Below are positions 7,765-32,149 of a DNA stretch of 64,000 nucleotides, in pieces. Each line of letters begins with the position of its first letter. Position 1 is the stretch's first letter. The stretch lies in contig CAZWBA010000008.1 in the NCBI GenBank assembly GCA_964631955.1, positions 71,312 through 135,311 of the forward strand. The letters run 5' to 3'. The position numbers and the translations under genes are program-made. Source of the DNA: an uncultured Verrucomicrobiaceae bacterium (GTDB lineage Bacteria > Pseudomonadota > Gammaproteobacteria > Pseudomonadales > CAMLJR01). The notes under the pieces are model-generated. The model worked only from the letters and a program-made list of their open reading frames with translations, was not told the origin of the DNA and searched no databases.

Positions 7765-10700
7765 GCGCTTGCTCTCCCAAAGGCTTTGTGTACTTCCTGC
7801 AGCGGTCGTACCGCTTTTTCTTCACCGTGACGCAGCGCTTGCACGACTGCTTCCGCACCGGCGAGCGTGGTGCTGTAAAAAATTTTCTGCGCCAGCGCCG
7901 AGCGACGAATCGTCGACGAATCCGCGATCGCCTGACGACCCTCGGTAGTGTTGACGATCAAATGGATCTCGCCATTTTTCACCATGTCGACAATATGCGG
8001 ACGGCCTTCCGTCACCTTATTCACGCGCTGACACTCGATGCCTGCAGCGGCGAGTACGCGTTGCGTACCGCGCGTTGCGCACAAGGTAAATCCGAGCGCG
8101 ACAAGGTCGCGGCCAACCTGCACCACATCGGCTTTATCCTGATCGCGCACGCTGAGAAATACCTTGCCGTCCTTCGGCAATTTTTCACCCGCGCCCCACT
8201 GCGCTTTTGCGTAGGCTTCCGCGAAGGTATCGCCGAGCCCCATCACTTCGCCCGTCGATTTCATTTCCGGGCCGAGAATCGGATCGACACCGGGGAATTT
8301 ATTGAACGGGAATACCGCTTCTTTCACGCAGTAATACGGCGGCACCACTTCTTTCGTGAAGTGTTGCTCCGCCAGTGTTTTTCCTGCCATGCAACGCGCT
8401 GCAACTTTTGCGAGCGACACACCGATCGCTTTCGACACGAACGGCACCGTACGCGATGCGCGCGGATTCACTTCGATCACATAAACTTCGCCATCCTGCA
8501 CCGCGAGCTGCACGTTCATCAAACCGACAACGCCGAGTTCGAGCGCCATGCGCTTCACCTGCTCGCGCATTTTGTCCTGCAACTCTGCGCTCAACGAATA
8601 TGGCGGTAGCGAGCACGCCGAATCACCCGAGTGAATTCCCGCCTGCTCGATGTGCTGCATGATCGCGCCGATCACCACGGTTTCGCCATCGCTCACCGCA
8701 TCGACATCGATTTCAACCGCCGCATGCAGGAAGTGATCGAGCAACACCGGCGAATCTTCCGATACCTGCACGGCTTCGCGCATGTAGCGTTTTAATTCGT
8801 CCTCTTTGTGCACGACTTCCATCGCACGGCCACCGAGAACATAAGATGGACGCACAACCAGCGGATAACCGATTTTTTGCGCTGCAATTAATGCCTGCTC
8901 GGTCGAGCGCACAGTCGCGTTGGGCGGCTGCTTCAATTGCAAACGCTCGATCATTTGCTGGAAACGTTCGCGATCTTCCGCACGATCGATTGCATCGGGA
9001 CTTGTACCGATAATTGGTACGCCATTCGCCTCAAGATCGCGTGCTAATTTCAGCGGTGTCTGTCCGCCGAATTGCACGATTACACCTTTCGGTTTTTCTT
9101 TCGCGACGATTTCCAGAACATCTTCGAGTGTGACGGGGTCGAAATACAAACGATCAGACGTGTCGTAATCGGTCGAAACGGTTTCGGGGTTACAGTTAAC
9201 CATGATGGTCTCGTAACCGTCTTCACGCATCGCGAGCGCCGCATGTACACAGCAATAATCGAATTCAATGCCCTGACCGATACGATTCGGTCCACCGCCT
9301 AATACGAGAATTTTATCGCGCTCGCTGACGTTCGCTTCGCACTCTTCTTCGTAGGTCGAATACATGTACGCCGTGCTGGTCGAAAATTCCGCGGCACAGG
9401 TATCGACGCGCTTGAACACGGGGCGCACATTCAATTGATGGCGACGTTTGCGCAATTCTTTTTCGCTGACACCCAACAATACCGCCAGGCGCTTGTCGGA
9501 AAAACCTTTGCGCTTGAGCTCAAGCATTTTTGTTGCGGAAATATCCGACAACGCAATCGTCTTCAATGCATTTTCAGTTTTAACGAGGTCTTCGATCTGT
9601 ACGAGGAACCACGGATCGATCGCCGAATATTCGTAAACCTCATCGATATTCATGCCCGAGCGGAACGCATCGGCGACATACCAGATTCTTTCCGGACCGG
9701 GATTTTTCAATTCGCCGATCAAAATATCGCGCGCATCTTCAGCATCGATATCGACTTTATGCTCGAAACCTGCGGAACCCACTTCAAGGCCGCGCAACGC
9801 CTTCTGCACCGACTCCTGAAATGAACGACCGATCGCCATCACTTCGCCGACCGACTTCATCTGCGTGTGCAAACGCGAATTTGCTTCGGGGAATTTTTCG
9901 AACGTAAAGCGTGGAATTTTTGTAACGACGTAATCGATCGACGGTTCGAACGATGCCGGTGTTGCACCGCCGGTAATTTCGTTGCGCAATTCGTCGAGCG
10001 TATAACCAATCGCCAATTTCGCAGCGACTTTTGCAATCGGAAAACCCGTCGCTTTCGATGCCAATGCAGACGAACGCGATACGCGCGGATTCATTTCAAT
10101 GACGACCATGCGGCCATCTTTCGGATTGACGCCGAACTGAACGTTCGAGCCGCCCGTTTCAACACCGATTTCGCGCAACACGGCGATCGATGCATTACGC
10201 ATGATTTGGTATTCGCGATCGGTGAGCGTTTGCGCGGGCGCAACGGTAATCGAATCGCCGGTGTGTACGCCCATCGCATCGAAGTTTTCGATCGAACAAA
10301 TGATGATGCAGTTGTCGTTTTTATCACGCACAACTTCCATCTCGTATTCTTTCCAGCCGATCAGCGATTCATCGATCAGCAATTCTTTCGTCGGCGATAA
10401 GTCCAGACCGCGTTCGCAGATTTCCATGAATTCATCGCGGTTGTACGCGATACCACCGCCCGAACCACCCATCGTGAACGACGGGCGAATGATACATGGG
10501 AAACCGATCTGATCGAGCACCTGCAACGCTTCTTCCATACTGTGCGCAATCGCCGCGCGCGGCGATTCGAGACCGATGCGCGTCATCGCCTGACGAAATA
10601 ACTGGCGATCCTCGGCTTTATCGATGGCTTCCTTGGTCGCGCCGATCAATTCGACATTGAATTTTTCAAGTACACCATGCTTGGCCAGATCGAGCGCGCA

Positions 10701-12793: not shown

Positions 12794-13747
12794 ATGCTGC
12801 ATGTCTTCAACATCAATAACGCCACTTTGAAAGAGCAGCGCAGCGGCTCGGGCGACACTCCGGTGTCGATTACTGACGCGGCCTGGATCGACGTCACCGA
12901 TCCGAGCCCCGAAGAGCGCGCGATGATCGAAAGCGTGCACAAAGCTCCCCTGCCCGATCCCGACGAGATGGAAGAGATCGAAGCGTCGGCGCGTTTCTTT
13001 ATCGACAGCGCCGGCATTCACGTCCACTCATTGTTCCTTTACCAGAGCGAGGGTCGCCACCGAACCGATTCGGTCGCGTTCATTCTCAACGACAAACAAC
13101 TGCTGACATTCCGCGATACCGAACTGCCCGATTTTCGTCTGCTGCGCATGCGCGCGCATCGCGGCTGGGTGGAAGCGAAAAATTCGCTCGACATCATGCT
13201 CGCGCTGCTCGAACAGAAAGTCGAAAACCTCGCCGACACGCTCGAAAACATTCACCAGCGCCTGGAGGATGTCAGCCACCTCGTGCTGGAAGATGAAGAA
13301 GGCGAACTCGAAGAGGCGATCGACCGGCTTGCGAAACTCGAAGACAGCAACGGAAAAATTCGTCTGTGCCTGATGGATACGCAGCGCTCGATTTCATTTT
13401 TGCAACGCCACATCCGCAATTACCCCGAACAGCAGGAAACTTGTCGCGAAATTTTCCGCGATATCGAAACGCTGATGTCACACACCGCGTTCCTGTTCGA
13501 AAAAATCAACTTCCTCATGGATGCCGCACGAGGCTTCATCAATATCGAGCAGAACCAGATCATTAAAATCTTCTCGATCGCCGCGGTGGTTTTTCTGCCG
13601 CCAACGCTCGTTGCCAGCATGTACGGTATGAACTTCCAGATCATGCCTGAACTGAACTGGGAATTCGGTTACCCGCTGGCGGTGATGCTGATGGTTTTAT
13701 CGGGAATCGCGCCGTACTGGTATTTCAAGCGCAAGGGCTGGCTGTAA
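12794..13747 (+). CDS. corA: CorA-family magnesium/cobalt transporter
   Basis: C-terminal ...LPPTLVASMYGMNF...YFKRKGWL carries the YGMN signature and two terminal TM helices. Confidence 0.9.
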   Translation: MLHVFNINNATLKEQRSGSGDTPVSITDAAWIDVTDPSPEERAMIESVHKAPLPDPDEMEEIEASARFFIDSAGIHVHSLFLYQSEGRHRTDSVAFILNDKQLLTFRDTELPDFRLLRMRAHRGWVEAKNSLDIMLALLEQKVENLADTLENIHQRLEDVSHLVLEDEEGELEEAIDRLAKLEDSNGKIRLCLMDTQRSISFLQRHIRNYPEQQETCREIFRDIETLMSHTAFLFEKINFLMDAARGFINIEQNQIIKIFSIAAVVFLPPTLVASMYGMNFQIMPELNWEFGYPLAVMLMVLSGIAPYWYFKRKGWL

Positions 13748-13761
13748 CTTTTCCACCCTGA

Positions 13762-13801
13762 CCCGCTCCCTGAATGGCCCTAAAGGGTCTACAGGAGAGG
13801 G
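13762..13801. repeat. REP-like imperfect palindrome related to the GGGAGAGGG family, between the convergent corA and HD-GYP genes
   Basis: cgctccctgaatggccctaaagggtctacaggagaggg, with outer arms ctccctg/caggagag and an inner ggccct-aaa-gggtc. Confidence 0.4.
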
Positions 13802-13803
13802 AA

Positions 13804-15087
13804 TTAACTGCTGCGTTCGTCGGGCTTCAATGCAAAGAAATACGAAATGCGTTCGCGTGGATTTAAATACTCGAACTGCTCCGGCGTCAGCTGCGCGGGC
13901 CGCAAACTTTTGCGAATCGACAAATCGCCCTGCGCAGTCATATCGACAATCACCGCTTCCGTTTTGGGAATATCCGCCGAGTACACCATGACACCCGGCT
14001 TGAGCAATTCCTTGCGATTCAGATAAATCACGATACCGATCGATTCGTCGGACAATTGCACCAGCGTGCCCGGCGGATAAATGCCCAGCATTTTCACCAA
14101 TGCCTGCAAAACCTGTTTGTCGAATTTCGCGGCCTGCTTGGAAAACATCAGACTCAACGCTTCGTGTGGCGTCATGCTCTGTTTGGGATCGTTGTGATTA
14201 CACAACTCGTCGTAGTAATTGACGATCGCGAGAATTCTGGACAGCGGATGCATTTTGGCCGGATCGATATCGACCGGATAGCCGCTGCGATCGAGAAACA
14301 CATGATGCTGCTCGATAATTGCGAGCAACGCAGGTTTCACCGTCAATTTCAATTTCGCGTACTGGGAAATCATATCGGTTCCGAAGCGCACATGACGCGA
14401 ATAGAGATCGGCTTCGGGTTTTGTCAGCGGTACGGTTCTACGCAGCAGTTGCGGCGGCAATTTGGTATGGCCGATATCGTGCAGCAGCGATGCCAGTCCC
14501 AGCGTCATCAATTGCTCTTTATCGGTGATTCCCACTTCGCGCGCCACCAGCAGCGCCAACACCGATGAATTGAGCACGTGGTAATACATCGAGTCATCGA
14601 GATTATTGGCGTTCATCAATTGCACGAGCACTTCCTTGTCCGCGCTCACCGTGGCCACGATACTGCCAACGACCCTGGTTGCCTCGTTCATCGCCTGAAC
14701 GGGTGCGCTATTCATTTTGCCCATGAAGTCTTTGACTTCGCCGACAACCTCGTTGTATTGCTTCTCGACCTTCTGAATTTCGACACGACGCTGACTGAGT
14801 TTGCGTGCCTGCTCCTTTTTCTCGTCCCACCGCTGCTGCAATACCTGCTCGGTGCCAGCGGCATCCGGATCGGCGAGCTCGGGCGTTTCGGCAGGCAGCG
14901 GTTCGACGCGCGATCTGTCGGGGTAATACCAGACCTCCTTCAGGCCGAGCGAACGAATCAGCATGATCTGCTGCGCGTCTTTGATGCGAAACTTGCCGAG
15001 CATGAAAGGATGCTCGTTCCAGCGCAGCGGCAATTCGATATACAGCCCAGGCTGGAGCTGTTGCACCTGGAGTGACTCTCGACTCAT
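13804..15087 (-). CDS. HD-GYP domain protein with N-terminal DUF3391-like region (putative c-di-GMP phosphodiesterase)
   Basis: LLHDIGHTKLP (HD) and HHVFLDRSGYP (GYP) motifs. The N-terminus LQPGLYIELPLRWNEHPFM is typical of DUF3391-HD-GYP proteins. Confidence 0.88.
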   Translation of the reverse strand: MSRESLQVQQLQPGLYIELPLRWNEHPFMLGKFRIKDAQQIMLIRSLGLKEVWYYPDRSRVEPLPAETPELADPDAAGTEQVLQQRWDEKKEQARKLSQRRVEIQKVEKQYNEVVGEVKDFMGKMNSAPVQAMNEATRVVGSIVATVSADKEVLVQLMNANNLDDSMYYHVLNSSVLALLVAREVGITDKEQLMTLGLASLLHDIGHTKLPPQLLRRTVPLTKPEADLYSRHVRFGTDMISQYAKLKLTVKPALLAIIEQHHVFLDRSGYPVDIDPAKMHPLSRILAIVNYYDELCNHNDPKQSMTPHEALSLMFSKQAAKFDKQVLQALVKMLGIYPPGTLVQLSDESIGIVIYLNRKELLKPGVMVYSADIPKTEAVIVDMTAQGDLSIRKSLRPAQLTPEQFEYLNPRERISYFFALKPDERSS

Positions 15088-15294
15088 CGGGACTCAATCT
15101 TTGAAATCGGATTTGAAACAGATACTTGACGTTCAGCTAGTGTGGTCGAGAAAACCGCGCTTGTCACTTTGCAGCCGCCGCTCTTGTCACTGTGCCGCAA
15201 CATGGCAGCGGGCGCTTCGCGAACGTTTTTTACATTTTGGCGAGGGTGGATGGCGCGTCTACACTTGGTTGGGTGCACGCATCCGGAGACCAAC

Positions 15295-23768: not shown

Positions 23769-24236
23769 ATGGCAGCGATATCCAGACCCGACATCGAAAC
23801 CCCCGCCGATATCGATCTGCTGGTCGAAACGTTCTACAAAAAATATGTCCTCGACGATCCGGTCATCGGCTTTTTCTTCACCGACATCGCGCACATCGAG
23901 CTCGACCGACATCTGCCGAAAATCAGCGCATTCTGGCAACTGCAATTACTCGGCAGGATCGGCTACAGCGGACAAACCTTCGTCGCCCATCGCGACCTGC
24001 ACACGCAGGCTCAACTGACGGAGGATCATTTTCATCGGTGGCTGCATTTATTCGAGAAAACCATCGACGAACTGTTCAGCGGCCCGCGCGCGGAAACTGC
24101 CAGACAGCGCGCTCGCACAATTGCACGCTCGATGCAGCGCGCACTCGCCAATAAACCGATCTCAGAGGAACGCATGGAGGAATTGCGTGGCGTGCAGCAT
24201 GTCGCCGCGCGCCGGCAACAGAAGAATCACGAGTGA
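23769..24236 (+). CDS. Group III truncated hemoglobin-like protein
   Basis: LVETFYKKYVLDDPVIGFFF...ISAFWQLQLLG...YSGQTFVAHRDLH...HFHRWLHLFEKTI resembles the trHbIII (Ctb-like) pattern. Recognised from memory only. Confidence 0.7.
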   Translation: MAAISRPDIETPADIDLLVETFYKKYVLDDPVIGFFFTDIAHIELDRHLPKISAFWQLQLLGRIGYSGQTFVAHRDLHTQAQLTEDHFHRWLHLFEKTIDELFSGPRAETARQRARTIARSMQRALANKPISEERMEELRGVQHVAARRQQKNHE

Positions 24237-24263: not shown

Positions 24264-24899
24264 CTACCAGCCTCGCGGCAGCGCCTTGCGCAAAATGATC
24301 GCGCCCGTGGTCTGTTCGATATAACCGCCAATCGCCAGTTCGCGCATGATGCGGCTGACCATTTCCCGCGATGCACCCACCATATCCGCGATCTCCTGAT
24401 GCGTTAATTTCAGCGCGGCGGTTTCACTCTCGGCTGATCGCTGCTGCAACAGATTGGCGACACGCCCATACACATCGAGCAAGGCCAGATCGCGTACACT
24501 GCCCGTGAGCGAGCGAATACGGCGGGCCATGCCGCGCATCATGGCGATCGCTGCACCATTTTCACCTTTCAGAAATTCGTGAAAATCCTGCTGAGAAATA
24601 ATCTGGAGCACGGTGGGTGCAACGGTAATGACCGATGCCGAGCGCGGCGCGCCGTCGATAAGCGCGAGTTCGCCAAAATAATCGCCGCCTTCGAGCCAGC
24701 TCAGCACCACCTGCCGGCCATCGTCACCATTTACGAACACCTTCAGATTGCCCGACACCACGATATAAAAATTATTGTGCGTGTCACCTTCGGTGACGAT
24801 GATCGAATTCTTGGGGTATTTATACTGCTTGGCACAACGCAATAATTTATCGGCCGCACCGTCGGAGAGCTCGGAAAACAGATCGATTTTTTTTAACAT
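24264..24899 (-). CDS. Crp/Fnr-family transcriptional regulator with a cyclic-nucleotide-binding domain
   Basis: cNMP cassette GDYFGELALIDGAPRSASV and C-terminal HTH THQEIADMVGASREMVSRIMREL. AAGGAG lies 5 nt before the ATG at 24899. Confidence 0.9.
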   Translation of the reverse strand: MLKKIDLFSELSDGAADKLLRCAKQYKYPKNSIIVTEGDTHNNFYIVVSGNLKVFVNGDDGRQVVLSWLEGGDYFGELALIDGAPRSASVITVAPTVLQIISQQDFHEFLKGENGAAIAMMRGMARRIRSLTGSVRDLALLDVYGRVANLLQQRSAESETAALKLTHQEIADMVGASREMVSRIMRELAIGGYIEQTTGAIILRKALPRGW

Positions 24900-24947
24900 G
24901 TCGGCTCCTTGTGTGGCCCGATTGTACAAACTATCAATCGCGTATTA

Positions 24948-24969
24948 AACCGTCCTCATCACAACGGTT
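24948..24969. promoter_or_regulatory. Inverted repeat AACCGT-N10-ACGGTT in the divergent crp-like/cyclase control region (candidate operator)
   Basis: aaccgtcctcatcacaacggtt has perfect 6-bp arms and lies in the 107-bp divergent intergenic region. Confidence 0.25.
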
Positions 24970-25006
24970 AAATATCCGTTCTCAACACCACAGGATTGCA
25001 TTATCG

Positions 25007-27013
25007 ATGCCGCAGCGACGCGAACTCATGCCACTCAAATCCGCCATCGCGATTTTATGCGCTGCGGCGGTGCTGCTGCTTTCACCACCCGGGCTGCAGC
25101 TCGAAGAAAATTTCGGGTTGCGATTATTATTTGCCTTGCGCGGCGAACGTCCCGCTCCCGATGCCGTCACCATCATTGCGCTCGACGAGGAAAGCAGCGC
25201 AATGCTGTCGTTACCCGATCTCGATCAGCTGGAGCGCTGGCCGCGATCGGTTTACGCGAAACTCATCCGCATTCTCGCCGATAACGGCGTCGCGGTCGTG
25301 GCGATGGATATCGCCTTTCTGGCAGCGGGCGATTCCGCTGACGATATCGCACTCGCCAATGCCATGCGTGCAGCTGGCAATGTGGTTATTTTAAAAATGC
25401 TCGATCGTGTCGACCCCGAAGCGGGCGCCGGCCCGCTGACCGAATGGCAGCTGCCACCGCTCGATCTGTTCGCCGACAATGCCGCTGCGGTAGGCGCGTT
25501 CACGCTTCCCGATCATGCAATAAAAAAATACACCACGCTGTTTCCGGATACGCCCGAAGGCACGGAGGCGGCCATGCCTCTGCTCGCACTGCAAATCCAT
25601 TACGGCGCAGCGCATGCGAAATTACCCGGCCTGCTCGACGATATCGGCGAACCGGTGCTGGCACAGCAGTTGAGAGAAAAACATAACGCAGCGCTATCGG
25701 CCGCGCGACTGCGATCCGCGCTTCTGCAAAACTCCTCCCTGGCCAATGCATTGATCGAAACAGCCGGCGACTCGCTAACCGAATCCGAGCGTCGGCAGTT
25801 GAAAATATTGCTGCAGGCCTATCGGGCACCCGATCCGATTTATCTCAACTTTTACGGCCCGCAACGCACCATTCGCACCCTGTCGCTCAGCGATGTGTTG
25901 CGCAACTCCGATGCCGCTGAAGTCAACGCTCTGCGCGGTCATGCCGTTTTCATCGGTTTATCCGAACGTTTGCACAAGCAGCGGGATTATTTTTTCACCG
26001 CTTATTCGAACGATCGCGAAAATCGCATCAGCGGCGTCGAAGTGGCTGCGACACTTTTTGCAAATTTGCGCGACAACCAGGTACTGCACGCAGCGCCCAC
26101 GTGGATCCAGCTGATGTTACTGTTCGGTTGGGGCGGAATATTATTCGTTACGGCGCAACGCCTGGCAGCAACGCAATGGCTGCTGCTCACTGCAGCATTC
26201 ACGGCTGCCTACGCGTTTCTCGCACTGTGGCTATTTGCACATTACGCTCTATGGCTGCCCATATGCATTCCACTCGCAATTGCGACACCCGCGTTAGCAC
26301 TCCTGGCCATTTGGCATTACTACCGCGACATGGCTCGATCCGAACGCGCGGTCGCCGACGCACTGAGTCTTTATGTTCCTGCGGATATTGTCGTCGCAGC
26401 GCGTACGAACCGCGATCGATTACTCAACGAACATCGTCAGATCGAAGCATTTTGTCTGCTCACCGACATCGTCGGCTTTACCGCACTTTCAGAGCAACAT
26501 TCACCCGAATACATGCATGACCTCATGAACCGTTATTACAGTGAAATCGTTGCGGCCATCGAGCGCCAGAGCGGCTTCGTCGCCAATATCGTTGGCGATG
26601 GATTGCTCGCCTTGTGGCCTAATTCAGATTCTTCGGGGATAATTCGCAGCGATAATATGCAAAAACTGGCGACCACCGTTTGCCGCACCGCGCTCGATAT
26701 CGTCGACGCGAGCGATCGCATGAGCAAAGCGGGCGAATCGTTGAAAACCTGCATCGGCATTCATTTCGGACCACTATCGCTCGGTCATCTCGGTGCGGGA
26801 CAACATTTCGAATACGCCCCGGTGGGCGACACGATCAATACGACTGCGCGCGTCGAATCGAGCAACCGGCAACTGAATTCGCGCATCCTGATCAGCGAAA
26901 CCGTGCACGAATATTTATCGGGTTTCGAAGTGCTCGATCATGGCAAGGTAACACTCAAGGGCAAGCGTGAAGCGCTCGCACTTTACGAACTGCTGGCAGA
27001 GAAAAAACACTGA
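25007..27013 (+). CDS. CHASE2 sensor-domain class III nucleotidyl cyclase
   Basis: N-terminal TM, then LRLLFALRGERPAPDAVTIIALDEES (CHASE2), a cluster of three or more TM helices, then the cyclase domain LLTDIVGFT...NIVGDGLLALW...GDTINTTARVES. Confidence 0.9.
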   Translation: MPQRRELMPLKSAIAILCAAAVLLLSPPGLQLEENFGLRLLFALRGERPAPDAVTIIALDEESSAMLSLPDLDQLERWPRSVYAKLIRILADNGVAVVAMDIAFLAAGDSADDIALANAMRAAGNVVILKMLDRVDPEAGAGPLTEWQLPPLDLFADNAAAVGAFTLPDHAIKKYTTLFPDTPEGTEAAMPLLALQIHYGAAHAKLPGLLDDIGEPVLAQQLREKHNAALSAARLRSALLQNSSLANALIETAGDSLTESERRQLKILLQAYRAPDPIYLNFYGPQRTIRTLSLSDVLRNSDAAEVNALRGHAVFIGLSERLHKQRDYFFTAYSNDRENRISGVEVAATLFANLRDNQVLHAAPTWIQLMLLFGWGGILFVTAQRLAATQWLLLTAAFTAAYAFLALWLFAHYALWLPICIPLAIATPALALLAIWHYYRDMARSERAVADALSLYVPADIVVAARTNRDRLLNEHRQIEAFCLLTDIVGFTALSEQHSPEYMHDLMNRYYSEIVAAIERQSGFVANIVGDGLLALWPNSDSSGIIRSDNMQKLATTVCRTALDIVDASDRMSKAGESLKTCIGIHFGPLSLGHLGAGQHFEYAPVGDTINTTARVESSNRQLNSRILISETVHEYLSGFEVLDHGKVTLKGKREALALYELLAEKKH

Positions 27014-27101
27014 ATATGTGCACGATGCTGACCGAATAATTTTTCAGCACGCGAACGGATTTTTCCAGACTCTTACGACTTGCAAGGAAGGGGTCTCCCC
27101 G

Positions 27102-30100
27102 ATGAAACAACGTCAATTGCATTCGCGAAAAAAATTAGGCGCGATTTCATTCCGACATTTAATCAACACACGCAGCTGTCTGTTCATCGCGTTAAATCTG
27201 GCGATGGGTTTATCTCACGCCGATTGCGACAACGCAGCCGGGCGCCTTGAAAGCAGCGAAGGCAAGGTGACTATCGAGCAGAATGGTCAATGGCAGCCGC
27301 TGGCAATTGGTAGCTGCGTGCCGACGAATGCGCGCATACAGGTGAGTGACGGCCGCGCCGTCTTTCGCCTCGCCAACGAAACTCTGCTGCGCACCTCCAG
27401 CTCTACCCTGCTGCGCTTCTCCGCGCCTCAGGAAAAAAGCTGGATTCGCCTGTTCGATGGCATTCTGCATTTCATCACCCGCACGCCCCATGCTTTCGAT
27501 GTAGAAACCGATTACGTCAACGCCGGTGTGAAAGGCACCGAATTCATGCTGACCGCCAATCGCGCAGAACAGTACGGCGAAATCGTCATGCTCGAAGGCG
27601 AAGTGCTCGCGAGCAACAAGCGGGGGCAACAGCAGATTCGCAGCGGTGAAGCGATCATTGCGCGCAGCGGCGAGGCGCCCCGCATTTTCACGGTTCCGAG
27701 CCTGCGCAATGCTGTGCAATGGACGCTCCATTATCCCCCGCTTCCGAATTCATCGCCGCGCTTTCAATCCGCGCTCACTTATTTGTATCGCAACGATGCA
27801 GCCGCCGCCCTGAGCGAACTGGAAAAACTGTCTATCACCGAACACGATGCCGATTACTTTGCTCTGCTGGCTGCGATTGGCTTACATCGCGGTGAAATCA
27901 CACCGGCACGCAATGCCATTGGCAGCGCGCTGGCATTGCAACCCGATCACGCGCAAACCCTGGCACTGAATTCAATCGCTGAACTGGTTATCGGCAATCA
28001 TGCAGAAGCCAAGCGCCTTCTCGATCGCGCGAACGATTCACGCAGCTCCGCAGCATTGATCGCTCGCTCCTATCTCCAGCAAGCGCAATTCGAATTGGCA
28101 GCTGCATTAACTAGCGCACAGCAGGCGGCCAGTCTCGATTCGAATTCCCCACTCATACAAGCACGCATCGCCGAGCTGTCACTCATGACTGGCGATATTT
28201 CGCAGGCGAGACAATCCGCGCGTAACGCGATTGCCCTGCAACCCGAATACGCCCGCGCCCACACTATCGCGGGTTTCGCGTTTATGCAGCAACTTGAATT
28301 CGATGAGGCCGAAACCGAATTCAAACGCGCCATTGAACTCGACGCAACTGACTCCCTGCCGCGATTAGGATTGGGGTTAATTCAAATACGCCACAATCAC
28401 GTGAGCGAAGGTCGCGAACAACTGGCGATTGCCGTCGCTCTCGATCCGGGGCAATCGTTATTGCGCAGTTATTTGGGCAAGGCGTATCAGGAAGAAAGTC
28501 GCGAGCGATTGGCGAGCGATCAATATGCACTGGCGAAAACTTTCGATAGCGCCGATCCGACACCGTGGCTGTATTCCGCGCTGCTCGCACAAGTACAGAA
28601 CCGCCCGTTCGATGCACTCGATGATTTAAATCGCTCGATCGAGCTCAACGATAATCGCGCGGTTTATCGCTCGCGTTTGCAACTCGATGCCGACGAAGCC
28701 ACGCGCACGGCAAGTCAGGCGGAAATCTATCGCGAATTGGGGTTCGACACACTCGCACAACGCGCCGCCGCGCGCGCTGTCAGCACCGCACCCAGTGAGC
28801 ATGGTGGTCATCGTCAATTGGCTGAAGCTTACGCAGACAACCCTCAATACGATGCCGCACGCGCAAGCGAAGTTCTGCAAGCACAACTTCTACAACCGCT
28901 CTCCGCAACACCGATATTGCCGCTGCTTGGCGAAACCAATTTACTCGCTATCGAAGGCGCAGGGCCTTCGGCATTAGGCTTTCGCGAATACAACGCGATG
29001 TTTGTGCGCGAAAAACCGTGGCTTTCTGTTTCCGGATTAGGCGGTAGCAACAACACCGGCGCAGGTGAGGTTTCGTTGAGCGGTGTTTATGATCGATTTT
29101 CGTATGCAGTGTCCCAATATCATTATGAAACGGCTGGCTATCGCGACAATAACGATGCGCGTTACGACGTAACATCTGCTTATACAAAATTCCAAGCAAA
29201 TGAGCATATTTCTTTTTTATTACAAGCAGCGAGTAGAGAAGAAGATCGCGGCGATTTAAATGAAAGTCTATTGAGCGATCAAGAGCTGCCATTTATTAAT
29301 GTCGAGAATAAAATCGACTCCGTCTTACTAGGTAGCCATGTGAAAATTTCATCCGACATTGATGTACTAGCAACTCTGGGATATCAAGATGGTAAATACA
29401 AACAACTTACACGCATTCCTCTTTTAGACGTCACTTTCGATCAAGACCAAAATACTTCTAATGCCGAAATTCAAACACAAATTAGCAGCAGAGTCGGGCG
29501 CTTTACGGTTGGTGCTGAATGGGTTGAAACAGACATCAAGATGCTAACTCGCAACACCACATCCGATCCAATTCTCCAGCTTTTTTTGGAACCGCAAGTT
29601 ACGGCAGATGAGACAGACTTTTATCGCACAGGTTATGGCTATTGGTCTTTATCACCCTTCAAGCCATTGGAGTTCACTCTTGGAGTGGCCTACGCGGAAC
29701 TTGATGCGGATGCATTTACGAAAAAGCTCTCCGGGTGGTATCCGAAAGCGGCCATAGTTTATCGTCCAGATTCGGCTCTAAGCTTGCGTGCGGCCTATTT
29801 TCAATCGTTAAGGCGACCTTTCGCTGACGAACAGACGTTAGAACCAACTCAACTTGGCGGATTCAATCAACTCGTAGATGAAACAGAAGGTATCGAATCA
29901 GATCAATACGCTGTTGGATTCGATTTCGATATGGGTTATGGCCATCACCTCAATGGAGAAATTCTCACAAGAAAATCGGCAATACCTTTAGTAGATCCAA
30001 TCGATGGTTTTCTGCGAAGCGATGCAGAGCAGAAATTGGGCTCAATAGCCTGGAGTTGGAGCGCCGATCCCTGGGCAATATCATTAAAATATCTGTATGA

Positions 30101-30470
30101 AAAAGATGAGTACGTAGAGGATGACCAATCATTCGAAGGAAAACCTTCCCCTCTTACGACTCATCGCTTACCGTTTCGAATTCAGTGGCAATCTAAGGCC
30201 GGCTTGTCGATATCGGCAGTTACCACTTATCTCGACCAGAAAGCAGAATTTGATAGAGGTCTAACTAAAAGAAGCGAAAGCTTTACGCTATTCGACATCG
30301 TGGCGAGCTACCCTTTTTGGAATCGCCGCCTTGAAGCAGAATTTCGTTGCAACAATTTATTTGTTAAATCATTTACCTATCAAAATATCAACCTTTATGA
30401 TCCGTCACCGAGACTGTCACCGTACATCCCTGAGAGGACTTTTCTTGCTGGGGTCAAATTTAATTATTAA
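27102..30470 (+). CDS. Secreted FecR-domain / multi-TPR / C-terminal outer-membrane beta-barrel fusion protein (1122 aa)
   Basis: Signal peptide ...FIALNLAMGLSHA. FecR-like LLRFSAPQEKSWIRLFDGILHFITR...VETDYVNAGVKGTEFML. At least 6 TPR-like repeats (ALQPDHAQT.., ALQPEYARAH.., AIELDATDS.., ALDPGQSLL..). TonB-dependent-receptor-like barrel strings LSLRAAYFQSLRRPFADEQTLEPTQLGGFNQ and the terminal ERTFLAGVKFNY. AAGGAAGGGG lies before the ATG at 27102. Confidence 0.8.
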   Translation: MKQRQLHSRKKLGAISFRHLINTRSCLFIALNLAMGLSHADCDNAAGRLESSEGKVTIEQNGQWQPLAIGSCVPTNARIQVSDGRAVFRLANETLLRTSSSTLLRFSAPQEKSWIRLFDGILHFITRTPHAFDVETDYVNAGVKGTEFMLTANRAEQYGEIVMLEGEVLASNKRGQQQIRSGEAIIARSGEAPRIFTVPSLRNAVQWTLHYPPLPNSSPRFQSALTYLYRNDAAAALSELEKLSITEHDADYFALLAAIGLHRGEITPARNAIGSALALQPDHAQTLALNSIAELVIGNHAEAKRLLDRANDSRSSAALIARSYLQQAQFELAAALTSAQQAASLDSNSPLIQARIAELSLMTGDISQARQSARNAIALQPEYARAHTIAGFAFMQQLEFDEAETEFKRAIELDATDSLPRLGLGLIQIRHNHVSEGREQLAIAVALDPGQSLLRSYLGKAYQEESRERLASDQYALAKTFDSADPTPWLYSALLAQVQNRPFDALDDLNRSIELNDNRAVYRSRLQLDADEATRTASQAEIYRELGFDTLAQRAAARAVSTAPSEHGGHRQLAEAYADNPQYDAARASEVLQAQLLQPLSATPILPLLGETNLLAIEGAGPSALGFREYNAMFVREKPWLSVSGLGGSNNTGAGEVSLSGVYDRFSYAVSQYHYETAGYRDNNDARYDVTSAYTKFQANEHISFLLQAASREEDRGDLNESLLSDQELPFINVENKIDSVLLGSHVKISSDIDVLATLGYQDGKYKQLTRIPLLDVTFDQDQNTSNAEIQTQISSRVGRFTVGAEWVETDIKMLTRNTTSDPILQLFLEPQVTADETDFYRTGYGYWSLSPFKPLEFTLGVAYAELDADAFTKKLSGWYPKAAIVYRPDSALSLRAAYFQSLRRPFADEQTLEPTQLGGFNQLVDETEGIESDQYAVGFDFDMGYGHHLNGEILTRKSAIPLVDPIDGFLRSDAEQKLGSIAWSWSADPWAISLKYLYEKDEYVEDDQSFEGKPSPLTTHRLPFRIQWQSKAGLSISAVTTYLDQKAEFDRGLTKRSESFTLFDIVASYPFWNRRLEAEFRCNNLFVKSFTYQNINLYDPSPRLSPYIPERTFLAGVKFNY

Positions 30471-30490
30471 AGAATGATGTAGGTATGTCC

Positions 30491-30514
30491 GCCTCCACGT
30501 ATTCACGTGGAGGC
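30491..30514. terminator. Perfect 10-bp stem-loop between convergent genes
   Basis: gcctccacgt-attc-acgtggaggc. No U-run, so its role as a terminator is inferred from position only. Confidence 0.45.
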
Positions 30515-30525
30515 ATGACAAATTA

Positions 30526-30921
30526 TCACTGGCAAAACGCTGCACCGGGTATGACGTAAGCGCGTCCATTAACGATGATGAAATAACATTGCGGACTGCC
30601 ATGATATTTAGTAATCGAGATATCCGACATTTGTTCAACCTGAACTTTATGCCCCGGTCGGAAAATTGGACATACATCGGATGATTTAGGATCTGTGCTG
30701 CATTTATCCCCGATCGGCTTCCCAGCACTGTCCTTAATAACCAATTCGCCATCCGCTTTAATCGTAAAAGTCACTTCCTTAAGCGGAGTAGGTTCCTCAG
30801 GCTTTGGCGGTCGTTCAGGATGCCCTTTCTCCACAGCACATGCCGTCATACTTAATAAAACCAACGCTACTGAAGCTGTACTTTTAAAACAACGCCCCCA
30901 GAAATTCGGTAAGACACTCAT
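30526..30921 (-). CDS. Small lipoprotein of unknown function (131 aa)
   Basis: Signal peptide plus lipobox-like VLLSMTAC, a Pro-rich tether EKGHPERPPKPEEPTPLK, and four further Cys. AGGGAGAA RBS. AT-richer than the backbone. Confidence 0.7.
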   Translation of the reverse strand: MSVLPNFWGRCFKSTASVALVLLSMTACAVEKGHPERPPKPEEPTPLKEVTFTIKADGELVIKDSAGKPIGDKCSTDPKSSDVCPIFRPGHKVQVEQMSDISITKYHGSPQCYFIIVNGRAYVIPGAAFCQ

Positions 30922-31050
30922 TACATTTCTCCCTTTTGCAACCGGTCAATAATTAACTGCTTTGTTAAATCGAAAAATAGAAATAGCAACAACGCACAGC
31001 ACTCAAGCAAAACGTGCTGCGCGAATCATAATGGGAGAACACTTATGTGG

Positions 31051-31794
31051 CTATGGATTCTTATTGAATGCTAATGGATGACGTGAACGTAATGTGATGC
31101 CGTCTTCGTTACGCAGACCCCAATGCGTATACCAGCCAGCAGGACTGGGATTGTAAAGCGAGACATATAAGTTCGGCGAAATGGAGCGGCGCACAACGAA
31201 TCGATAGCCGGTTTGCTCGTCATCCAGCTGCATAACTGAAAAATTAAAAAATCCCGCCGTATCGCTCACTGTCGTCATCGAATAAACGGCGGGCATGCTG
31301 GTTGGGTGGTAATAGCAAAGAAGGGGCTGAAATATCGCTGGATTATTGCCGAGCAATTGTCTGAATGATGTATTGGAAAGCGATTTTGCCGCAGCAGCAA
31401 GCAATTCGAAGCCAGGCACATTAGGTAACTGTGCGATATCAGCAAATTGCGTTGCAGGCACATCGACAATGGACGTCGCCGCACTGGCATAAAGGTCGAC
31501 TGGCCGTAAACGTTCTAAAAACAATTTGCGGAAATTGCTCAAAACACTATCCGGCAAACTGGTCGCCAGAGTTTTCAAGGAAGCCACGATTTGCAATTCG
31601 ACCTGTGCGCCTGCTACCGAGACTTGCTGCAAGTCCTGAATACCCAATATACGACCGTGTATTTTTTGTCGCGGGTTGCATTGCGGCGCTAACTCCCGGA
31701 AGCTCTCGCGCTTTAGATTGTCGATCGTATCGGCGATCGGCGTCGACTTGACGACTTCAGGTGTTCGACTTGCTGCTGGAACGATCTGATTCAT
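31051..31794 (-). CDS. Hypothetical protein (247 aa), no signal peptide, no recognisable motif
   Basis: ORF open to the GTG at 31902, but AAGGAG sits 8 nt before the ATG at 31794 (MNQIVPAASRTPE...). I could not assign a family. Confidence 0.55.
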   Translation of the reverse strand: MNQIVPAASRTPEVVKSTPIADTIDNLKRESFRELAPQCNPRQKIHGRILGIQDLQQVSVAGAQVELQIVASLKTLATSLPDSVLSNFRKLFLERLRPVDLYASAATSIVDVPATQFADIAQLPNVPGFELLAAAAKSLSNTSFRQLLGNNPAIFQPLLCYYHPTSMPAVYSMTTVSDTAGFFNFSVMQLDDEQTGYRFVVRRSISPNLYVSLYNPSPAGWYTHWGLRNEDGITLRSRHPLAFNKNP

Positions 31795-32149
31795 GGCACT
31801 CACTCCTTTGCGATCTGTAGCGACAACTCCGTGTAAATACAACTCCGCAAACGAGATCCAAGCATGCCCTTCAGAAGATCGTTCCGCAGCGCAGTTATGC
31901 ACCAGCAGGTTGTGAAAAATTACCGAACCAGTCGCGCTCGAAGCCGGCCGAAAGGTAATAAATCACACGACCACCGCCATTTTCATACTGAGATGCGCTA
32001 CCGCCTCCGGTTACAGTGACCTAGTCGATAGGGATTCGGCCACAGGGTCGACAAGCAATTTGGAGCACGAATTGGATGTCGATGGACTGCATGGATGCCT
32101 GCACAGGGACGTGCCACACGGATCACGCCGATGCAAATTCTTTCCACAA

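Follow-up and report, generated by a model that had tools for sequence, protein, structure and literature searches.

CHASE2 is a common bacterial sensor domain for which, to our knowledge, no ligand has been established, and the sole functional clue to it comes from one rhizobial system. In Sinorhizobium meliloti, this clue is offered by NsrA (SMb20775), the cyclase CyaK and the regulator Clr (Garnerone et al. 2018, J Bacteriol 200:e00019-18, as cited in PMC7529298 and PMC13001267), for which a relay leading from the outer membrane to a CHASE2 cyclase and from there to a Crp-family factor has been proposed from genetics. Signal perception requires NsrA and either CyaK or CyaD1/D2 (Sorroche et al. 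2020, PMC7529298), and the CHASE2 cyclases raise cyclic AMP (cAMP) when the ribosomal protein uL2 is sensed through NsrA, the cAMP then activating Clr (PMC13001267). Furthermore, CyaD1 deprived of its CHASE2 domain makes cAMP constitutively (PMC5498481). Here, we analyse a three-gene cassette found in a stretch of 64,000 nucleotides (hereafter, the window) of contig CAZWBA010000008.1, from an uncultured Verrucomicrobiaceae bacterium that GTDB places in the Pseudomonadales. Judged from the sequences, it is close to certain that the cassette is homologous to the S. meliloti genes and belongs to the same NsrA/CHASE2-cyclase/Crp kind; it is a further, distant example of a known but barely studied module.

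The first of the three genes (24264-24899, minus strand) encodes a Crp/Clr-like cyclic-nucleotide-dependent transcription factor of 211 aa, and is divergent from the gene (25007-27013, plus strand) of a predicted inner-membrane receptor cyclase of 668 aa, in which a CHASE2 domain is joined to a class III catalytic domain; an intergenic region of 107 bp (24900-25006) lies between them. On the plus strand follows the gene (27102-30470) of an NsrA-like exported protein of 1122 aa, which carries a FecR domain, an array of tetratricopeptide repeats (TPR) and a β-barrel, and no terminator-like site was seen in the 88 nt (27014-27101) that separate it from the cyclase gene. The list of open reading frames (ORFs) and their translations agree with the original prediction, made from the sequence alone, on the coordinates of the three genes, on the 107-bp and 88-nt gaps and on the C-terminal FLAGVKFNY of the third product, and all of the domains that it named (cyclic-nucleotide-binding Crp, CHASE2 cyclase, FecR, TPR and TonB-type barrel) are found in Pfam. 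The regulator ORF reaches 24929, and its first Met gives the 211-aa product. The three products (211, 668 and 1122 aa) are present, identical and with the same starts, in a public protein collection, on one contig of 152,383 bp, so that the predicted starts coincide with an independent gene call.

NsrA was not detected when the 1122-aa protein was compared with plasmids by tblastn, which gave no match at 1e-5; it was reached by tblastn with an alphaproteobacterial member of the family, at E≤1, and then by profile comparison. In hhalign, a family profile of 24 sequences aligned with NsrA with a probability of 99.9% and an E-value of 7.5e-34 over 1005 columns, at about 20% identity, from profile positions 33-1099 and NsrA residues 30-1187, and this end-to-end alignment identifies the window protein as a distant full-length homologue of NsrA. 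The latter has 1200 aa, with Pfam matches to FecR (2.3e-15) and TPR, whereas CyaK combines CHASE2 with a cyclase domain, and the annotation of pSymB places nsrA and cyaK next to each other on one strand. The window cyclase matches CyaK by BLASTP at 1e-20, with 25% identity. The two proteins, each exported and roughly 1100-1200 aa long, share the order of FecR domain, TPR array and barrel from the N- to the C-terminus; the gene of each adjoins, on the same strand, that of a class III cyclase with a CHASE2 domain, and in both cases a Crp-family cyclic-nucleotide receptor is the reader, putatively so in the window. The two arrangements are not identical: the order is nsrA then cyaK in S. meliloti and cyclase then barrel in the window, and clr does not stand beside nsrA-cyaK in the stretch of pSymB examined, whereas the regulator gene of the window is divergent and adjacent.

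It follows that the relay put forward in the original prediction, from the outer membrane through a CHASE2 cyclase to a Crp-like factor, is essentially the published model of a homologous system, and its claim of novelty fails for this reason. In fact, in addition to the studies on NsrA/CyaK/Clr, a linkage of FecR and CHASE2 had already been noted elsewhere (PMC9239204, PMC5192318). The best 120 matches in a search for NsrA homologues were from Rhizobiaceae only, and NCBI names these homologues 'TonB-dependent receptor'. The closest relative of the window protein among the matches listed is encoded by a metagenome-assembled genome (MAG) of the Spongiibacteraceae (69% identity), not by a plant symbiont, so the cue probably differs from that of S. 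meliloti.

The alignment of 119 homologues that served for conservation scoring was also the input of an AlphaFold2 model of the 1122-aa protein, which has a mean predicted local distance difference test score (pLDDT) of 90 and a predicted template modelling score of 0.88. A signal peptide (aa 1-39, with the signal helix at aa 20-34 in the model) is followed by a FecR β-sandwich (aa 45-197, nt 27234-27692, plus strand as for all parts of this protein) modelled with a pLDDT above 84 and matched by Pfam FecR at 2.2e-09 (aa 83-168). After it come a TPR solenoid of 24 helices (aa 219-597, nt 27756-28892), recognized by several TPR families of Pfam, a linker of lower confidence (aa 598-639, nt 28893-29018), which leaves the TPR array and strand 1 no more than about 42 residues apart, and a barrel of 22 strands (aa 640-1122, nt 29019-30467), matched by Pfam TonB_dep_Rec_b-barrel at 1.6e-14 (aa 680-945). 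The last 140 residues weakly match the ends of TonB-dependent heme receptors in NCBIfam, and the final residues of FLAGVKFNY are Phe-Asn-Tyr. Compared with the Protein Data Bank by Foldseek, the model has as its top matches exclusively TonB-dependent transporters (BauA, FptA, FpvA, BtuB and FecA), with E-values of about 1e-16 and a probability of 1.0. The C-terminal barrel anticipated from the sequence is therefore recovered both by modelling and by structural comparison.

In the modelled barrel, the turns on the side of the termini have 2-5 residues and the loops on the opposite side are longer. One of the latter, L7 (RRPFADEQTLEPTQLGGFNQLVDETEGI; aa 904-931, nt 29811-29894), placed between strands 13 and 14 by the DSSP string, is formally an outward loop, yet it is the most conserved part of the barrel and is on a par with the best TPR segments. 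Over the 119 sequences, conservation peaks in the C-terminal half of the TPR array (0.74), in L7 (0.73) and in the linker (0.64), the barrel as a whole scoring 0.47 and the other outward loops mostly 0.06-0.49, with the 8-aa loop L2 (0.72) as an exception. Within L7, E914 and Q923 never vary, and at least 90% of the homologues keep Q911, P915 and F921, around a core QTLEPTQ.GGFNQ. We infer that L7 may fold into the lumen and may, with the linker, both seal the barrel and act as the transducing element.

The cassette belongs to a large family. A word-indexed search gave 738 matches, mostly of about 1100 aa and with the same domains, in an exhaustive profile search of 1.84 billion representatives 4,194 clusters (50% identity) reached E≤1e-30, the best 150 of which are nearly all close to full length, and at least 596 family places were found in a scan of one genome per species. 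The hosts listed include Nitrosomonas europaea, Nitrosospira, Methylomonas, Thiodiazotropha, Desulfosarcina, Nitrospirota, Brocadia and Rokubacteria. The window proteins were compared with every ORF of 82 loci (L001-L082), and linkage was counted in the 52 whose flanks both measure at least 3 kb. A CHASE2 gene is present in 48 of these and lies within 1.5 kb of the barrel gene in 46, an adjacency far beyond chance; CHASE2 and cyclase share a single ORF in 47 loci. The commonest order, with 35 loci, is that of the window, cyclase then barrel on one strand, and the reverse order of S. meliloti and Methylomonas occurs in 10. Such layouts are found in Methylomonas, in a Thermodesulfobacteriota MAG and in L003, a relative with 54% identity.

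In two loci, L048 (4893-7187) and L051 (14295-16496), the neighbour of the barrel gene encodes CHASE2 fused to SpoIIE, a PP2C phosphatase, and no cyclase, from which it can be seen that the barrel protein is constantly paired with the CHASE2 domain and not with a given output. This swap is the strongest genomic argument for a functional contact between barrel protein and CHASE2. The same pairing of a FecR-domain protein gene with a CHASE2 sensor gene has been described on two other occasions: in the cyclase cluster of Campylobacterota, in which a FecR outer-membrane protein is encoded near a CHASE2 gene, with a separate gene for a TPR protein and a phosphodiesterase in the cluster (PMC9239204), and in the 'BiofilmReg' operon of Burkholderia, in which a CHASE2 histidine kinase stands beside a protein with LysM and FecR but no barrel (PMC5192318). 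The output attached to CHASE2 thus varies from cyclase (Campylobacterota) to kinase (Burkholderia) and phosphatase (L048 and L051), whereas the fusion seen in the window is shared by neither system, FecR and TPR being on separate genes in the former and the barrel being absent from the partner in the latter.

Some loci depart from the usual pattern in other ways. Two paralogous FecR-TPR-barrel genes, in tandem or close to each other, stand beside one CHASE2 cyclase gene in L019, L061, L065, L066 and L081. In L002 (8667-10830, from a Thermodesulfobacteriota MAG), CHASE2 (487 aa) and the cyclase (228 aa, with a Glu/Gly pair) are called as separate adjacent genes, a split that is either real or due to a frameshift. 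In L068 (16890-19259), no CHASE2 gene was found within 10 kb of the barrel gene, and a gene for a cNMP_binding-CBS-DUF294 nucleotidyltransferase is nearby. A match on an Azospirillum plasmid was rejected, since it is a TPR protein without relation to the family, encoded next to FecI, FecR and TonB-receptor genes of the classical type.

The window cyclase has the layout expected of a CHASE2 receptor. Pfam finds CHASE2 at 1.4e-32 (aa 18-379, nt 25058-26143) and Guanylate_cyc at 2.6e-22 (aa 484-656, nt 26456-26974), and hydropathy gives hydrophobic segments at aa 6-32 and 391-438, equivalent to one transmembrane helix before CHASE2 and a block of about three helices after it. Since such segments lie on both sides of it, CHASE2 is predicted to be periplasmic and the class III domain cytoplasmic. 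The window cyclase has retained both Asp residues that bind metal as well as the Asn and Arg of the transition state, and 65 of the 66 cyclase sequences aligned have the full set of four. The pair of residues that specifies the base is a different matter. We know of no studied cyclase with a charge-swapped Asp/Arg pair, and this is the pair most often found among the barrel-linked cyclases, with 26 cases, followed by Asn/Arg (8), Glu/Gly (6), Asn/Ala (5) and a few other combinations. It is known that adenylate cyclases use Lys with Asp or Thr, mammalian guanylate cyclases Glu with Cys or Ser, and Cya2 Glu with Gly (PMC6005667, PMC5995499). In the window, the catalytic region (26390-27013) has neither the ATP-specific Lys with Asp/Thr nor the GTP-specific Glu with Cys/Ser/Gly, but Asn (in ANIVGD) and Ala (in FEYAPVGD), compared with Lys/Ser in CyaK. 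In HMMER alignments to solved structures, this Asn falls on Glu of NPR1 and Lys of Pseudomonas aeruginosa CyaB, and the Ala on Cys of NPR1 and Thr of CyaB. The Asn/Ala group comprises the window, three close relatives and L079, and the Lys-Asp/Thr pair is almost never found in barrel-linked CHASE2 cyclases. With non-canonical pairs such as these, the product of most barrel-linked cyclases, that of the window included, is not readable from the sequence.

A comparable departure is seen in the regulator, for which Pfam reports cNMP_binding (1.3e-22), HTH_Crp_2 (2.7e-13) and Crp (1.3e-08), and among solved structures Vfr, GlxR and CAP come nearest, with E-values of about 1e-25. Residue numbers are those of CAP, and they agree with the HMMER alignment to Vfr. 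The window regulator retains E72, R82 and S83 of CAP (FGE...RSAS) and R180, E181 and R185 of the recognition helix, and all 25 linked regulators of the fetched loci keep E72, R82, S83, R180, E181 and R or K at 185. The signature of Crp proteins consists of a phosphate-ribose cassette E(X)nRS and, in Gram-negative members, of a Thr-Ser or Thr-Thr motif in the C-helix (PMC10187061). At the positions of CAP T127-S128, the window has Leu-Thr, in contrast to Thr140-Thr141 of Clr, and the linked regulators are Leu-Thr in 21 of 25 cases and Ala-Thr in 4 of 25; by their sequences, these regulators form a distinct subclass. The ligand is not identified by this signature and may still be cAMP, because cAMP-dependent SYCRP1 has Leu-Asn and TTHA1437 Ala-Asp at the same positions (PMC10187061). 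A reading of Leu at CAP 127 as a sign of cyclic GMP (cGMP) was dropped as indecisive, Thr being absent from SYCRP1 and TTHA1437 as well. The family-wide, non-canonical signatures of both cyclase and regulator, as they appear in the sequences compared, are the points that look new.

The output side was further explored through CAP-type boxes. The motif TGTGA-N6-TCACA occurs at 17 sites in the window against 21 expected, with no excess, and in the fetched loci CAP-like boxes near the 5' ends of linked crp genes reach 1.2 per kb compared with 0.32 per kb overall. In the Methylomonas loci L001, L030, L035 and L052 (at about 9040-9130), a TGTGAAATACTTCACC/T box is placed just 5' of a crp-barrel-cyclase operon, and in the Nitrosomonas locus L074 (14870-14885) a perfect TGTGAGATTTCTCACA lies near the crp-like gene, a pattern of motifs that suggests autoregulation in these loci. 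Good CAP-like boxes near crp were found neither in the window nor in L003 or L031. The region 24900-25006 has other features: a sigma-70-like promoter match for the crp gene (24948-24921, minus strand), whose TACAAT box is inside a block, ATTGTACAA, common to L003 and L031, and an inverted repeat, TATTAAACCGT-N10-ACGGTTAAATA, at 24943-24974, which is not conserved in L003 or L031 and is not called an operator, since close relatives do not have it.

Taken together, the architecture, the fold, the full-length homology to NsrA and the conservation of the barrel-CHASE2 pair make an NsrA-type trans-envelope relay, from an outer-membrane receptor through a CHASE2 cyclase to a Crp-like factor, the probable function of the cassette. 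In such a relay, the 1122-aa protein would be anchored in the outer membrane by its barrel, which has 22 strands, resembles that of TonB receptors and is without a Plug match in Pfam; the TPR solenoid and the FecR domain at the N-terminus would extend into the periplasm, where the FecR/TPR part would touch the periplasmic CHASE2 domain of the inner-membrane cyclase. A cue at or in the outer membrane would alter this contact and free the cyclase from the inhibition imposed by CHASE2, and the cyclic nucleotide made would be bound by the adjacent Crp-like factor and change transcription. The need for NsrA together with CyaK, the action of cAMP via Clr and the restraint of CyaD1 by its CHASE2 domain are taken over from the literature on the homologue and would hold here by analogy, whereas the physical contact of FecR/TPR with CHASE2, the direction of the signal and the identity of the cue are what we infer. 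We also entertain, as a tentative and rather doubtful extension, that most members of the family, the window's included, may, given the Asp/Arg, Asn/Arg or Asn/Ala pairs of the cyclases and the Leu/Ala-Thr subclass of the regulators, not use cAMP but cGMP or another cyclic nucleotide, and that FecR, rather than a small molecule, may be the 'ligand' of CHASE2.

Several observations weigh against this relay. Identity to NsrA is only about 20%, and function may have diverged. The co-occurrence foreseen for the three genes holds for the barrel-CHASE2 pair and only in part for the regulator, as a Crp-like gene is within 5 kb in only 22 of the 52 loci (42%). The window cyclase lacks the canonical base-specifying residues, which makes its activity and product putative. 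No TGTGA-N6-TCACA with up to two mismatches is found in 24900-25006, which had been taken for a control region, or in the intergenic regions of the cassette, and the regulatory output is to this extent putative. Neither Plug nor STN domains were found by Pfam, and the relay does not explain what would close a 22-strand barrel in their place. A point in favour of the relay is a mirror-tree comparison of distance matrices over 54 pairs, which gave r values of 0.80 for FecR/CHASE2, 0.78 for FecR/TPR of the same protein and 0.70 for CHASE2 and its own catalytic domain, with partial correlations of 0.63 for FecR/CHASE2 given the catalytic domain and 0.21 for FecR/catalytic domain given CHASE2; since such correlations are inflated by shared phylogeny, they are counted as weak support.

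The main rival is itself a variant of the NsrA-type relay, in which the module would sense the state of the envelope or cell damage instead of a specific external ligand, the grip of the bridging protein on CHASE2 being altered by perturbation of the outer membrane, by cationic proteins or peptides from lysed cells, or by periplasmic width. In the S. meliloti work, extracts of plants, yeast and bacteria all contained the signal that depends on NsrA/CyaK, and it was traced to the very basic uL2, for which an electrostatic interaction was proposed (PMC7529298); in the window protein, the loops predicted to face outwards have more acidic than basic residues (22 Asp+Glu versus 10 Lys+Arg). The conservation peaks at the TPR-barrel junction and in L7 would also fit a mechanical element better than a variable ligand site, and members of the family occur in nitrifiers, methanotrophs and sulfate reducers, which live freely and are without a plant host. 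All the same, not every basic protein acts as a signal in S. meliloti (PMC7529298), and no genes of an envelope-stress regulon are linked to the cassette; we consider this variant unlikely, if worth keeping in mind.

Less probable still is that the barrel is primarily a channel, for export of cyclic nucleotides or uptake of a solute, with the cyclase gating transport or gated by it and the signal running from inside to outside. The transporter-like 22 strands and the absence of a Plug in Pfam would suit it, and Rhodospirillum centenum, which has a Crp-linked cyclase system, secretes cGMP in encystment (PMC4681086), but the homology of its genes to the family could not be shown. Furthermore, genetics in S. 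meliloti put NsrA in signal perception, upstream of cAMP synthesis (PMC7529298, PMC13001267), no TonB/ExbBD or inner-membrane transporter genes are linked in the window, and an open 22-strand pore would be harmful, while the conserved L7 and linker suggest a closed barrel. Classical Fec-type signalling or TonB-dependent uptake, with the unrelated cyclase and regulator as chance neighbours, is hardly credible. It would account for the Pfam matches to FecR and TonB_dep_Rec_b-barrel and for the NCBI label of the NsrA homologues, and the cassette does resemble FecA-FecR-FecI in having a TonB-receptor-type outer-membrane barrel and a periplasmic FecR-fold domain that would carry information inwards. 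The architecture, however, already contradicts it: FecR forms part of the barrel protein and is not a separate inner-membrane anti-sigma factor, Pfam finds no Plug, no extracytoplasmic function (ECF) sigma factor is present among the neighbours scanned (hrcA, grpE, dnaK, recN and fur), a CHASE2 gene is within 1.5 kb in 46 of 52 loci, and the output would, by analogy with NsrA, be a cyclic nucleotide. The parallel with Fec drawn in the original prediction is thus an analogy only.

The likeness to Slam, PgaA, BcsC and PelB, also invoked there, proves to be loose. Like the window protein, they join a TPR array in the periplasm to an outer-membrane barrel at the C-terminus, but their barrels have 14-16 strands and their genes sit in operons for the export of polysaccharides or surface lipoproteins. 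The barrel of the window protein has 22 strands and is TonB-receptor-like, and the protein also includes FecR and is encoded beside a signalling enzyme. On the side of the cyclase, Synechocystis Cya2 (PDB 2W01), a CHASE2-regulated guanylate cyclase matched by the window protein at 6.8e-13, has the same layout of CHASE2, transmembrane and class III domains, and its Glu/Gly pair occurs in six family loci, unlike the Asn/Ala of the window. The cGMP system of R. centenum was reportedly described by Marden et al. 2011. According to a later report, gcyA/gcyB/gcyC-cgrA comprise a Crp homologue, a cyclase and 'non-catalytic subunits', with autoregulation through a TGTGA-N6-TCACA box (PMC4681086), and similar boxes are those found near crp in the Methylomonas and Nitrosomonas loci of the family. 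R. centenum is not among the best 120 NsrA homologues, and a link of GcyB, GcyC and RC1_3783 to the family, for which literature searches gave no report, is an unconfirmed lead.

To the left of the cassette are hrcA-grpE-dnaK, and to its right a cold-shock-like gene, recN and fur. The original prediction extended it to 30921 and thereby took in a gene that it did not mention, encoding a lipoprotein-like product (LSMTA-C) of 131 aa (30526-30921, minus strand), beyond which is an ORF of 283 aa (31051-31902, minus strand) with a likely start at a Met at 31794, giving 247 aa. Both have a homologue in L003, the former at the same place and in the same orientation (13479-13985, 5.3e-19) and the latter next in line (14043-15092, 1.3e-47); neither has a family match in the Pfam and NCBIfam scans, and for the 131-aa gene no homologue was found in other clades. 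In L003, the crp, cyclase, barrel, 131-aa and 283-aa genes are in the same order despite outer flanks that differ from those of the window, indicating that the block of five genes moves as a unit in the close clade. The G+C content, 0.50 and 0.47 across 28000-32000 against about 0.55 in the surroundings, along with the position of the block and the differing flanks in L003, suggests that it was acquired as a unit. Upstream of the 283-aa gene, a 17-bp block, GGTAATTT(T/G)TCACAACC, is common to the window (31908-31924, minus strand) and L003 (15150-15166), and about 35 bp further upstream L003 has TGTGACTTTTTTCACC (15201-15216), one mismatch from a CAP box, of which only the TGTGA half is retained at the corresponding site of the window (31954-31971, minus strand). 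The 131-aa and 283-aa genes may have an accessory role in the module or be among its targets, the former possibly specific to the clade. Between hrcA and the crp-like gene there is also an ORF of 155 aa (23769-24236, plus strand) with a sub-threshold Pfam match to Bac_globin, the bacterial-like (truncated) globins (E 0.0037), which is not kept beside the cassette in L003.

The existence of a large, multi-phylum family, in which CHASE2 is the partner of the barrel protein whatever its output, turns what could have been seen as a curiosity of symbiosis into a general design for signalling from the outer to the inner membrane. What remains of particular interest are the non-canonical signatures of cyclase and regulator throughout the family, and the prospect that CHASE2 may sense a partner protein and not a small molecule.

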